Source: a virus
IMG/VR virus record: IMGVR_UViG_3300045131_002362
Location: 1-64,000 of that record
Reading direction: 5' to 3' (one strand)
Length of the DNA stretch: 64,000 bases
This document shows positions 8,048 to 18,568 of the stretch, piece by piece; the first letter of the stretch is position 1; the number at the start of each line of letters is the position of its first letter. Both the position numbers and the translations under genes were made by a program. The notes beneath the pieces were generated by a model, which saw nothing but the letters and a program-made list of their open reading frames with translations, was not told the DNA's origin and did not search any database.

Positions 8048-10687
8048 ATGAAACTCACAAATCTCGAACTGAACGGAACGCTACTGTTCACCTCTGCCGG
8101 TGAAACGAAGTCTGTTGTCATGACAACGGACGCCGATGGCATTCCGTACAGCGCCTATTACGTCATGCCGAACGGTTACGTCTCCTGGCTGTCCGTCACG
8201 GTTGTAGACAATGTGTTCGCCATGAAGGCGACCAGCAACCTGTTTTCCGAAACGTCGAGGAGTGTGGTTGTGAGCTTCAGATGTATGCCGACGGCCGGCG
8301 GCACACTTCAGACGACGAACGTCACTGTTACGCAGGCGGCTGACACGGTTGCCCTGACGTTTGACCCGACACAGGTCTCGCTGGCGTACGACGCGGGGGC
8401 CACCGACGACGTGACCGTGACCGGCATACCGTCGGGCGCAATCGTCACTGTCTCAGCTCCCGAATGGCTCACGGCAGCTTTCTCTTCCGCAACAACTCTT
8501 GCTGTGACCGCCGCGCTTAACGTTTCGGAGGATGACCGTGTCGGCACTGTCACCGTCGGTGTTGACGGAAGATCTTTCTACCTCACCGTCACGCAGGCCG
8601 CAAATACCTCGACCATCACGTTTGATCCGACAGAGGTATCGCTGGCGTATAGCGCAGGGGCCACCGACGACGTTACAATCACCGGCATACCCTCCGGCGC
8701 ATCCGTGACTGTCTCTGCGCCCGAGTGGCTCACGGCCTCTGTGCTTGCTGGCGTTCTGACGCTCACTGCGACAGAGAATCCTAGCGGTTCGGAACGCACA
8801 GGAACAGTGAACCTTGTCGTTGTGGGGAAGACGTGGCCGCTGACTGTGGCCCAAGCAAAGAACCCCTTCCTGTACGGGCCGCTCACGCTTGACGAGCAGT
8901 CCTATGACGCGCCATACTCCGGAGGATCTGTGACGGTCACGGCGACAGCCATGCCGTCGAACGCAAGCACCTTCTCGATCGCCGTGAAGCGGTCCGGATC
9001 TTGTACAGCCTGCGAAGACTCAGAAAACGTGATCACGTTCGAGCAACTGAGCGCGACATCTGTGAAGATCATTGTAGGTGCGCAGGATCTGTTCGACGGG
9101 ATTGAACGTGGCTTTACGCTGACGTTTACAGCCGGAAACGAGACGGCCACTTTCACGATCACGCAGGAGGCGCCCGACGCGTATCACCGGTATTATGGCG
9201 TTGGAGACAAGTTCTTGCGCTCGGCAGTTTCCGAGAAGACACCGACCTATCTCGCCCCGTCGACCGTACAGCAGCTTTTGGCTGAGTTGAAAACGACCGG
9301 ATGGACACAGCTCGAGTCGCTGAGGGCTCCTGTATTGGTTGCCACCAATCTCGATTCCGTGCCGAAGAAGATCCTCTCGCATGAGGCGTTCAAGGCGTGC
9401 CATGGGCACACGACGGTCGATGGCACGACCTTCCACCAGGTCTCGATGGGCGCCGCCGTATACAGGTTCATTTTCGATCCTGCGGCATACGGCCTTGTGC
9501 TGAAGGGCATCCGTTTCATCGTAAGATCCGACGCATATTGCGCCGAGGGGCTCCGTGTAGCGCTGGACACGACAAGCACCTCTGACACGCCCTCGGAAGA
9601 CTGGTTGGCCATAAGGGAAGGCACAGCAGGCTTTTTCAAGCCTGGTTGTGCCCCGCGAGTTTTGCGGGACGCGGGATATTACGGCGCTTCGGAAACGGTC
9701 GTGTTCTCGCCGATCAACGTCACGATCTCGGCAGAGACTCGACTGTACCTGTACCTGACCCTTGAGGACTACCGTGGGATCATCAACGGCTGGGTTTACG
9801 GCTCCGGTCTTATCAATCCCGTGTTCGACTTCTTCGCTGCGGATGAGGATACGGTCGAGGGAGTAGAGAATTATGACACGATCGCCCAGTCGGCGATACA
9901 GAAAGACGGATACCCGCTCGTGACGGACGGTACGGTTCTGTCGCCGATGGCAGATCCGGCGAATCCTTCCGAGGGCCGCGAGATTGCGATCCGCGCTGTC
10001 AATTTCGGCACGTCGCCCTCGAAGAACGATCCGACGCCTGTCGAGGCAGCGAGCGCGATCGCCTTCCTTGCCGCGCGAATCGCCGAGAGCGGTATGGCGC
10101 AGGCGGATCTGTCGGCCACCCCGATCACGGCCTGGCAGGCGCACCAGTTTGGACTGGGCTGCGCCATCTGCCGGCAGATCATCGGTGCAACAGCGCCCTT
10201 CTCTCAGCGCCTGATCCAAACGGTTTCGCCTCTGGCCGTGCTGTGCGCCTTGCCGCCAAACTACACGCCAGCGTTCGTCAGACTGACTCACAGGGCCGGG
10301 CAGGCGACTTTTGTCGTTTCCGGCGCGGATGTCCGGCTGTCGGTTTACTGGATCGCGTCGAAGGCCGTGACGCTGAAAGAACTCGGCGACCTCTATGCGG
10401 CTCCGGCGTTCTCTCTCGGCGAGTCAAAGATTGAGGGCGGCGGAATGACGGCGGAACTGCTCGGCAGCAAGCGCATTCCGTCTTCGGTCGCCGCGCTGAC
10501 GGAGGTCGCCATCGAGATTGTGCCGCCTTCCGCGCGCTGGGGCACGCTGCTCATCGTTCCGTGGATCGCCCGTGTGACGGCAACGTCGCTGGTGGCGAAT
10601 GAGCCGATCGGTCTTGTGGGTATTGAGGTTCTCGAAAACGAAATCGCCGGAACCGCCTGGGTCCCGGACGTGAAACTGGAGGCATGA
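8048..10687 (+). CDS. Tail-associated protein with tandem BACON-like Ig domains
   Basis: Repeated APEWLTA...N.S...R.GTV motifs; near-identical DNA repeats around 8360-8475 and 8620-8735. Confidence 0.75.
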   Translation: MKLTNLELNGTLLFTSAGETKSVVMTTDADGIPYSAYYVMPNGYVSWLSVTVVDNVFAMKATSNLFSETSRSVVVSFRCMPTAGGTLQTTNVTVTQAADTVALTFDPTQVSLAYDAGATDDVTVTGIPSGAIVTVSAPEWLTAAFSSATTLAVTAALNVSEDDRVGTVTVGVDGRSFYLTVTQAANTSTITFDPTEVSLAYSAGATDDVTITGIPSGASVTVSAPEWLTASVLAGVLTLTATENPSGSERTGTVNLVVVGKTWPLTVAQAKNPFLYGPLTLDEQSYDAPYSGGSVTVTATAMPSNASTFSIAVKRSGSCTACEDSENVITFEQLSATSVKIIVGAQDLFDGIERGFTLTFTAGNETATFTITQEAPDAYHRYYGVGDKFLRSAVSEKTPTYLAPSTVQQLLAELKTTGWTQLESLRAPVLVATNLDSVPKKILSHEAFKACHGHTTVDGTTFHQVSMGAAVYRFIFDPAAYGLVLKGIRFIVRSDAYCAEGLRVALDTTSTSDTPSEDWLAIREGTAGFFKPGCAPRVLRDAGYYGASETVVFSPINVTISAETRLYLYLTLEDYRGIINGWVYGSGLINPVFDFFAADEDTVEGVENYDTIAQSAIQKDGYPLVTDGTVLSPMADPANPSEGREIAIRAVNFGTSPSKNDPTPVEAASAIAFLAARIAESGMAQADLSATPITAWQAHQFGLGCAICRQIIGATAPFSQRLIQTVSPLAVLCALPPNYTPAFVRLTHRAGQATFVVSGADVRLSVYWIASKAVTLKELGDLYAAPAFSLGESKIEGGGMTAELLGSKRIPSSVAALTEVAIEIVPPSARWGTLLIVPWIARVTATSLVANEPIGLVGIEVLENEIAGTAWVPDVKLEA

Positions 10688-18040: not shown

Positions 18041-18568
18041 ATGAAGAAGACACTGGTTATCATCGCGGTCGCTTGCCTTGCCCTTCAGGGGCTTATGGCC
18101 GCAGACCGGTTTACGGAGACGATCACCGTCGCCGCAGGCGCCACGAACGCCACCGTCACATTCCCGCTGTACCGTGCTGACGGGCCGCCGGCCACCACGA
18201 TCGACACGCTTTGCGTTGTCGTCGATAGCGGTTCCGGAACGGGCGTAGTAACGTTCGCAAGCTACGACTATGGTGTCGCGACGACCATCGCAACGTCAGG
18301 CTCGATCAAGGACGGCGAGGCTTATGCGACGCAGCCGTACAATACGTTGAGCGCGCTGTACACGTACCCGGTTGTGGAGAGTGTCGTGACCGGAAATGTT
18401 GTTCTTGCGAGACAGAATCTCCAGACCAATTATACCGTGACAGTTGCCTCGCCGATTGCACGACAGTTGAAGGTCAGTGTGGCACAGGCCGCAGTTGCTG
18501 ACGCCACCGTCTACAAGGTGGCTGTGTACGTGAAAGAGAATCCACCGGTCCCGTTGCATCTAAAGTAG
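18041..18568 (+). CDS. Secreted beta-rich protein (signal peptide)
   Basis: MKKTLVIIAVACLALQGLMA-ADR; AGGAG SD; own promoter and terminator. Confidence 0.8.
   Translation: MKKTLVIIAVACLALQGLMAADRFTETITVAAGATNATVTFPLYRADGPPATTIDTLCVVVDSGSGTGVVTFASYDYGVATTIATSGSIKDGEAYATQPYNTLSALYTYPVVESVVTGNVVLARQNLQTNYTVTVASPIARQLKVSVAQAAVADATVYKVAVYVKENPPVPLHLK

Follow-up and report, generated by a model that had tools for sequence, protein, structure and literature searches.

Three late proteins of a freshwater tailed phage, one of them fibre-like, begin with predicted and conserved signal peptides

Background

Tailed phages are, as commonly taught, assembled entirely in the cytoplasm, and annotators use the absence of a signal peptide to separate phage fibres from bacterial adhesins. 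In this work we have analyzed three late genes of a phage found in freshwater, one of which encodes a fibre-like protein that breaks this rule. The window, i.e. the whole stretch of DNA under analysis, comprises 64,000 nucleotides (nt; positions 1 to 64,000 of IMG/VR record IMGVR_UViG_3300045131_002362) and constitutes the first part of a genome of 86,708 bp. The tailed-phage identity of the genome is real, as genes for the large terminase, the portal and a ClpP-type prohead protease lie at 75.7-80.4 kb of the genome; the match to a tape-measure protein at 1976-5848 of the window is weak. The late genes occupy the + strand between 1976 and 18568, and three of their open reading frames (ORFs), 10684-12750 (688 amino acids, aa), 13372-16023 (883 aa, the fibre-like protein) and 18041-18568 (175 aa), encode proteins that start with predicted signal peptides.

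Results

Gene starts and signal peptide layout

All three ORFs were confirmed on the + strand (Table 1). The 688-aa gene has tandem ATG codons at 10684 and 10687, a GGAGG motif at 10678-10682 and the stop codon of the upstream gene (TGA) at 10685-10687. The second ATG, which is better spaced from GGAGG and is the one at which the public gene call P0005 begins, is the likelier start. The 883-aa gene is preceded at a distance of about 7 nt by GAGGGGGG, a G-rich Shine-Dalgarno site, and its ATG overlaps the stop codon of the 184-aa gene as ATGA. The 175-aa gene, the last one on the + strand, is separated by 111 nt from the gene before it, with GGAGAG 5-6 nt ahead of its start; a promoter-like site (consensus match only) is situated before it at 17945-17973.

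Table 1 Features of the late region, in window coordinates
Feature	Position	Strand	Basis
888-aa tail protein, signal-less, stop overlaps 688-aa start	8021..10687	+	Pfam, comparison with provirus L001
688-aa protein with calcium-binding motifs and beta sandwiches	10684..12750	+	alignment, AF2, Foldseek
Predicted signal peptide of the 688-aa protein, ~18-20 aa	10684..10743	+	family-wide n-region, core, A/G at -1
184-aa protein, signal-less, stop overlaps fibre start (ATGA)	12821..13375	+	no family match
Predicted signal peptide of the fibre-like protein, 18 aa, cut CIA↓QE	13372..13425	+	layout, AF2 helix, relatives
Conserved mature N-domain of the fibre-like protein, ~45 aa, aa 19-65	13426..13566	+	invariant columns with P0090, P0093
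Helical, coiled-coil-like segment, aa 270-335	14179..14376	+	AF2, low confidence
Central beta domain, aa 348-519, common to ordinary phage fibres	14413..14928	+	pLDDT ~85-96, VIA Z 9.5
C-terminal jelly roll, CBM6/35/36-like, aa 700-875	15469..15996	+	alignment, VIA, Foldseek
Three genes between the fibre and 175-aa genes	16052..17929	+	hydrophobic 19-mers
175-aa small beta-sandwich protein	18041..18568	+	relatives, ESM Atlas
Predicted signal peptide of the 175-aa protein, aa 1-20, cut LMA↓AD	18041..18100	+	layout, relatives

In each of the three N-termini a basic residue precedes a hydrophobic stretch free of charges, and small residues occupy positions -3 and -1 of the predicted cut, which falls at FACAA↓NMAD in the 688-aa protein, at SCIA↓QE in the fibre-like protein and at GLMA↓AD in the 175-aa protein. 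The best 10-residue Kyte-Doolittle means of the hydrophobic cores are 2.24, 2.70 and 3.29, respectively. AlphaFold2 (AF2) models place helices at aa 2-15 and 2-20 in the signal region, aa 2-20 of the fibre-like protein being helical. The signals were called with a crude home-made rule that flags nine of the 118 candidate ORFs of the genome. The only flagged ORFs of at least 100 aa with the full pattern are the three late ones; the remainder comprises five ORFs of 52-81 aa and the ClpP-like protease at genome position 79107, a false positive.

A lipoprotein reading (cleavage by signal peptidase II) was considered and rejected, since the Cys of the signals is not conserved. In the family of the 688-aa protein Cys occurs in three of ten signals, without a lipobox. 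It is found in 13 of the 15 signals of the 175-aa family, at shifting positions, in several cases with V or I at -1, and it is always followed by further hydrophobic residues and the conserved A↓[AG]D; some members of this family may be lipoproteins.

Conservation of the signals in relatives

A word-index search gave a family of 31 proteins for the 688-aa protein, its own entry included. After 21 rows had been dropped (fragments, internal-start calls, other length or architecture), nine relatives remained that align from the N-terminus, and the signal is kept in all of them. With the window protein counted, K or R is present within the first six residues in 10/10 and A or G at -1 in 10/10, the latter directly preceding the invariant D-x-DGDG-[LM]-PD-x-WE. 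In the alignment of the 175-aa family (13 homologues, one protein from the provirus L001 and the window protein), all 15 sequences open with MK[KR], continue with a hydrophobic stretch and have A at -1, just ahead of [AG]D[RWY][FY].

The first 100 residues of the fibre-like protein are shared by two proteins, P0090 and P0093, both of which have retained the signal as well as the first mature residues, Q-[ED]-x-RMDW[KR]WGRPGV, and differ from the fibre-like protein downstream of this N-domain. They have R or K at positions 3-4 (R4 in the fibre-like protein), and the predicted cuts in this group are CIA↓Q, AFA↓Q and CFA↓Q. The alignment of the three contains four invariant columns inside the signal as against about 33 within aa 19-64. 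A drifting signal with fixed residues beyond it is, at the level of the alignment, the pattern of a cleaved signal in front of a functional N-domain. Two other proteins, P0002 (1364 aa) and P0003 (872 aa), share only inner and C-terminal parts with the fibre-like protein and have unrelated N-termini, again signal-like.

An exhaustive HMMER search with the fibre-like protein retrieved 885 representatives at E <= 0.001, and the domain and signal counts given here come from the best 150 of these 885. Gln occupies the first polar position past the core in 33 of 69 signal-like and in 15 of 78 signal-less representatives, and in 26 of those 33 it comes after A, G, S or C. The cut in the window protein is predicted directly before Gln, and a study on Porphyromonas gingivalis phages describes Gln at +1 as characteristic of Bacteroidetes substrates of signal peptidase I (PMC10367356).

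The original prediction, made from the letters of the window, had proposed that these three late proteins start with signal peptides, and the ORFs, the layout and the conservation bear it out; the homologues that it wanted inspected do keep the signal, in both N-terminal relatives of the fibre-like protein as in the two larger families. By the evidence of sequence the three proteins carry conserved, cleavable-looking signal peptides of the signal peptidase I type. Layout, conservation and the Gln pattern together make export by the Sec pathway with cutting by signal peptidase I highly probable.

The fibre-like protein

The matches to the 883-aa protein reveal a mosaic of four parts: the N-domain, aa 57-356, a central part (approximately aa 350-540) and a C-terminal domain (C-domain, approximately aa 695-883). 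The AF2 monomer has a mean pLDDT of 58 and is confident only at aa 350-520 and 700-875; the helices of its coiled-coil-like segment are at 270-280, 286-296, 307-321 and 332-335.

The central domain links the protein to ordinary phage fibres. Seventy of 147 representatives match this domain only, and 57 of the 70 are signal-less (13 signal-like). In a tblastn search of 50,697 phage records the sole match of the fibre-like protein was a protein of Pseudomonas phage Rollin annotated as tail fiber (OR577172.1), with 33.5% identity over aa 364-514 (151 aa). The whole model resembles many Caudovirales fibre-like models in BFVD, with E values down to 5.9e-18.

The C-domain alignment has as invariant residues Q, H, TN, H-x-H, TNN and D-x-H-x-P. 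Its model superimposes on the CBM36 structure 7ay3 with a VIA Z of 10.0 and a root-mean-square deviation of 3.2 Å over 120 aligned aa. Many CBM6/35/36 entries score Z 8-10 over aa 707-872, a modest margin given that Z 7-8 is common by chance. The fold is CBM6/35/36-like as judged from the model; no Pfam family was matched at E <= 0.01 and no solved relative was found in a PDB sequence search, which returned chance matches only. Carriers of the C-domain are signal-like in 49 of 65 representatives (7 of 12 among the remaining representatives), and many of the signal-bearing ones are just 200-270 aa long, with only a signal and a short linker ahead of the domain. The C-domain had no tblastn match in the 50,697 phage records, nor had the related protein from the metagenomic locus L101. 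Scans of viral contigs with the whole fibre-like protein and with the C-domain alignment gave no matches, the pattern scan being narrow enough that the C-domain may be there.

The gene is situated between the tail genes and a putative lysis region and is translationally coupled to the signal-less 184-aa gene upstream. The phage genome was found to encode neither another fibre-like protein nor a paralogue of any of the three. A complex prediction for three copies of the 184-aa protein with three of fibre aa 19-110 (score 0.00, mark 0.32) is no evidence either way. The resemblance to a tail fibre noticed originally thus holds, in the helices of aa 270-335, the domain shared with Rollin, the matches to fibre models and the gene position: the 13372 protein is fibre-like and mosaic, and is probably oligomeric.

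The 688-aa protein and the gene upstream

The mature 688-aa protein starts with a region of TSP3-type calcium-binding motifs (aa 23-68); model confidence is low up to aa 149. Four or five Ig/FN3-like beta sandwiches follow at aa 160-640, with a second D-x-D motif at aa 634-647. The invariant residues of the family are D23, D25, G26, D27, G28, P30, D31, W33 and E34; G52, D53, D55, D57 and G58; and D636, D638, D640, D644 and E647. The AF2 model (pLDDT 62.6) gave Foldseek matches to MG (macroglobulin), FN3 and Ig arrays at E 4.5e-7. Matches in Pfam and NCBIfam are sub-threshold and confined to the calcium-binding motifs. PF18884, which we take to be a TSP3-type calcium-binding repeat family, is precomputed on three of the nine aligned homologues (P0010, P0013 and P0016). 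Two candidate assignments were discarded: Binary_toxB, a toxin reading after the clostridial binary toxin B / anthrax PA family (21.7 bits against a cut-off of 25, for aa 636-661 only, a likeness of calcium motifs), and MtsD (20.7 bits against a cut-off of 800).

The 888-aa protein encoded upstream has three BACON repeats (Pfam 3.3e-18, 3 stretches) and a conserved C-terminal half, aa 454-887, that is 42% identical to the product of the gene preceding the 688 homologue in the provirus L001. This BACON-bearing protein is the only other candidate receptor binder of the phage.

Relatives and their gene neighbourhoods

L001, classed as a provirus by IMG/VR, keeps the homologue of the 888-aa C-terminal half followed by a signal-bearing homologue of the 688-aa protein, as well as a signal protein similar to the 175-aa protein, which adjoins a DUF1353-like gene and a look-alike of a papain-type peptidase. 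No fibre homologue was found in L001, a record only 59% complete.

In 10 of the 11 loci examined from metagenome-assembled genomes (MAGs) the full module of the 688-aa protein lies within ORFs of 1471-6165 aa. Of these giant ORFs, seven of ten have signal-like N-termini and the other three are cut or unclear; accordingly, the module of the phage is related to segments of host surface proteins that are secreted. Most of the MAGs belong to Verrucomicrobiota, Kiritimatiellia or Victivallales. The host probably comes from this group, to judge by such relatives; given the BACON repeats and Gln at +1 it may instead belong to Bacteroidota. As a separate observation, seven of the ten giant ORFs (L014, L015, L016, L020, L038, L042 and L056) end with ...[FY][FY]R[IVL]..., which may be a sorting or anchoring signal and which the phage protein does not have.

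A metagenome scan with the C-domain gave nine loci, three of which were dropped with the N-terminus off the locus. In all six that were read (L101 and L102 being nearly the same) the C-domain protein begins with a signal. One of them, L098, is a phage (phrog_332 at 2e-22, internal virion protein at 1e-46). Its signal-bearing fibre of 666 aa lies among virion genes, overlaps a signal-less upstream gene and is followed by small ORFs, a papain-type peptidase and a signal protein similar to the 175-aa protein. This protein of 146 aa was related to the 175-aa family by hhalign with 88% probability, and a second L098 ORF gave a weak BLAST match. The papain-family peptidase of L098 (10758-11516, Peptidase_C1 1.6e-15) has no signal; its look-alike in L001 is at 1042-1854, no copy is detectable in the window phage, and it may be the lysin of the L098 and L001 phages.

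In two further, Mu-like contigs, L099 (55% GC) and L100 (42% GC), a large terminase gene is followed by a cassette of three genes, at 568-4162 and 7284-10993, respectively, for a small signal protein, a signal-bearing fibre (907-970 aa) and a second small signal protein. In L099 this cassette is followed by a small membrane protein and a Mu-type portal, and it is not a tail module. No relation of the 175-aa family to the small signal-bearing neighbours in L099 and L100 was detected by hhalign. Among ten small ORFs located after the fibre genes in L096, L098, L099 and L101 no holin was recognized by PHROGs; one faint Rz-like match was obtained (0.0073). As to synteny, the second point on which homologues were to be compared, the pair of the 888 C-terminal half and the 688-aa gene recurs in L001, and the fibre cassette of L099 and L100 is found between terminase and portal.

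The 175-aa protein and neighbouring genes

The ESM Atlas gave the 175-aa protein weak viral jelly-roll-like neighbours (best score 0.87), taken as a lead only. Portions of 8000-19500 are matched by RNA-library contigs identical to the window; portions lacking such contigs carry no meaning, and contig depth cannot properly rank genes. For the contigs contained entirely in the 175-aa gene the word depth is 110 (X7) and 43 (X12), for other RNA contigs of the region 2-8, and two DNA runs are flat over 8000-19500. This gives a weak hint that the 175-aa gene is transcribed separately and strongly.

The three genes at 16052..17929 encode proteins of 207, 210 and 212 aa with no family matches, bar a faint phrog_1158 at 0.0021 for the 212-aa protein. 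In the 207-aa protein, aa 142-160 form a hydrophobic segment. The 210-aa protein (16672-17304, + strand) has a Cys-rich N-terminal part and one membrane segment at aa 113-131 ending with the lipobox-like LFTGC. An embedded lipoprotein gene in this ORF was rejected, as there is no in-frame ATG, GTG or TTG in the 20 codons upstream of the segment. These small hydrophobic ORFs suggest a possible lysis or membrane module. Two contigs from other lakes, X8 and X6, combine long identical stretches with dense clusters of substitutions at 14089-14256 and 16689-16947, i.e. in the helical segment of the fibre-like protein and in the 210-aa membrane protein gene, which suggests that strains exchange mosaic segments at these two places.

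Genome and sample context

DNA identical or nearly identical to the phage is present in freshwater and lake-water metagenomes from 15 studies, of which five are possible sources of the contig, and the matching DNA sequence also occurs in two RNA libraries, both from one sample. A blastn search with 10684-18568 gave no close DNA relative among the phage records. The replication arm on the opposite strand contains RecA-like, SNF2, clamp-loader-like and Mre11-like phosphoesterase genes, a T4-like set. Pfam searches with 20 larger ORFs from the rest of the genome, a set that was not exhaustive, revealed no integrase. Inside the replication arm tRNA-Gln(UUG) adjoins a gene for tmRNA (tag AAIVPAAP) at window 30945-31351, - strand, and just beyond the end of the late operon lies a gene for a radical SAM protein (19693-20436, - strand; Pfam 3.1e-09).

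Discussion

The explanation that we favour, with a probability of roughly 0.45, is that the three proteins are free envelope- or glycan-binding proteins released at lysis, for which we infer export, cleavage, calcium dependence, glycan binding and a non-virion fate. They would be made late, threaded unfolded across the inner membrane and cut by signal peptidase I. Folding would take place in the periplasm, where calcium would serve the TSP3 motifs and possibly the CBM-like domain, and the three would then function beyond the cytoplasm as a group of binding proteins. The group would consist of a fibre-like protein tipped with a carbohydrate-binding jelly roll, an elongated Ig-like array of 688 aa taken from, or common with, host surface adhesins, and a small beta-sandwich of 175 aa that may be abundant. 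Instead of being built into tails in the cytoplasm, they would bind envelope glycans of the infected cell and be set free at lysis; possible uses include coating of receptors on debris, aiding exit and sticking cells together.

This explanation is preferred because the 688 module is kin to secreted surface proteins and because the C-domain is tied to signals, also in very short proteins. It is further favoured because the signal-bearing cassettes of L099 and L100 lie between TerL and a Mu-type portal, because the 175-aa gene has its own gap, a promoter-like site and a high RNA contig depth, and because XepA, discussed below, provides a precedent of an exported late protein absent from particles. 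The original prediction had put exported virion components first and remodelling of the infected cell surface second; the second option appears at least as likely, in view of the kinship of the 688-aa protein, the L099/L100 cassettes and the gap before the 175-aa gene. Nothing was found pointing to modification of the proteins by the host, which had been part of the same proposal.

Several observations weigh against free binding proteins. Apart from its signal, the fibre-like protein looks in all respects like a virion fibre, namely in the position, the coupled start, the N-domain and the shared domain, and the signal-bearing fibre of L098 sits among virion genes. The genome holds no second fibre-like gene or paralogue, so a receptor mask has no virion fibre to copy, unless it is the BACON protein that binds the receptor. 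The lysis-module neighbourhood has no holin support from PHROGs in the ten small ORFs of the relatives. Finally, the contig depths do not rank genes and the signal rule is home-made.

An alternative that we regard as unlikely makes the proteins parts of the virion. The fibre-like protein, and perhaps the Ig-array protein, would be exported, processed and folded in the periplasm and docked by the N-domain onto finished tails, either upon opening of the inner membrane by the holin or shortly after lysis. Fibres of some phages, e.g. T4, do join otherwise complete particles last. The genes are part of the tail operon, with translational coupling to tail genes that lack signals, the pair of the 888 C-terminal half and the 688-aa gene is kept in L001, a domain of about 45 aa follows right after the cut with mosaic distal parts beyond it, and the protein, the only fibre-like one encoded by the genome, matches Caudovirales fibres structurally down to E 6e-18; the signal-bearing fibre of L098 is embedded among virion genes. 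On the other hand, we know of no tailed phage that builds tail parts outside the cytoplasm, and each point in favour of free proteins counts here as a point against. The whole 688 module is common to bacterial surface proteins, and therefore no phage-specific docking part is visible. One study takes the lack of a signal in fibre-like DGR targets to indicate that they come from a phage (PMC6199706). Slightly less probable is the complete scheme, in which the host-recognition fibre of this phage and its relatives would be a virion part that undergoes Sec export, trimming and calcium-dependent folding in the periplasm and joins the tails at lysis, i.e. a two-compartment assembly.

It is improbable that the three are moron or conversion proteins, located on the surface or in the periplasm, that serve the host or lysogen (adhesion, phage exclusion) and are only passengers of the late region, like lom in lambda. 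The classification of L001 as a provirus, the cassettes of L099 and L100 at the TerL-portal junction of Mu-like heads and the separate gap and promoter-like site of the 175-aa gene fit such a role, and signal genes of Porphyromonas phages are read as envelope modifiers (PMC10367356). Against it stand the lack of an integrase among the 20 larger ORFs (scanned non-exhaustively) and the T4-like replication set. Moreover, the starts of the 688- and 883-aa genes overlap the stops of tail genes, and these proteins are therefore made together with the tail.

Very improbable is a role of the hydrophobic N-termini other than export, as uncleaved tethers, assembly handles or membrane-active infection helices of proteins assembled in the cytoplasm, which would remove the topological problem and recall the signals predicted on phage capsid proteins that, according to PMC10367356, are likely removed by the prohead protease, but which is countered by the small residues at -3/-1 kept in 10/10 and 15/15, by a drifting core before fixed post-cut residues, by the enrichment of Gln at the cut and by bacterial homologues with the same modules that are plainly secreted giants.

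The significance of the finding lies in a tail-operon fibre-like protein with a conserved export signal, relatives of which occur in at least three other phage contigs. If the proteins are indeed free, late-exported lectin- or adhesin-like proteins would represent a little-studied class of exit or envelope factors; if the fibres join virions after export, this would be a new assembly route. Either outcome bears on host-range prediction and on the annotation of uncultured phages, as well as on the means by which phages cope with glycan-rich envelopes in hosts of the Verrucomicrobiota or Bacteroidota type.

Comparison with known systems

Ordinary fibres of the Rollin type share with the window protein the central beta domain, a modular build and the position after tail-tip genes. 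They differ in that the representatives with the central domain only are mostly signal-less (57/70) and in that the C-domain is unmatched in phage records. The giant MAG proteins (L014-L017, L020, L042 and others) hold the whole 688 module at 25-37% identity, with both calcium motifs and N-terminal signals, but in them the module is one part of 1471-6165 aa accompanied by extra domains, e.g. LamG in L015.

Llp of phage T5, one of the receptor-blocking lipoproteins of phages, is a small early lipoprotein that acts on the receptor side of the envelope. The three proteins described here are not lipoproteins, are in part large and are co-transcribed with late genes. They resemble Llp (10.1101/2022.06.28.497910) in being phage-encoded and, by prediction, exported.

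XepA of the Bacillus subtilis PBSX element, one of the exported XepA/YomS proteins of lytic cassettes, is exported late and absent from particles; it differs from the proteins studied here in its Gram-positive host and its shape of a pentameric dumbbell (PMC6834076). At the sequence level, a PDB profile search with the 175-aa family gave only chance (antibody) matches, and no homology to XepA was found. The phages of P. gingivalis (Matrishin et al. 2023, PMC10367356) have genes with Sec signals that follow the Gln-at-+1 rule like the fibre-like protein here, and these genes are read there as using the general secretion of the host to modify the envelope. The genes named there encode capsid proteins, spanins and proteins of no assigned role, and the term 'tail fiber' occurs 0 times in its main text.

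One of the closest designs is that of the MAT (mosaic adhesive trimer) fibres of Bdellovibrio bacteriovorus, in which a signal is followed directly by a conserved beta-rich domain and mosaic distal parts, as in the fibre-like protein, and which serve outside the cytoplasm as adhesins (PMC10769870). The same source gives the differences: MAT genes belong to the chromosome of a predatory bacterium, the N-domain has about 130 aa and many of the proteins carry an S74 chaperone-protease. The likeness between MAT fibres and the fibre-like protein is one of design, drawn from description. No account of tail-fibre signal peptides as exported virion parts was found in the literature searched, which mostly excluded subscription journals and supplements. 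Sec signals, phage fibres and exported late proteins are each already known, and the combination encountered in this phage is a variant of them.

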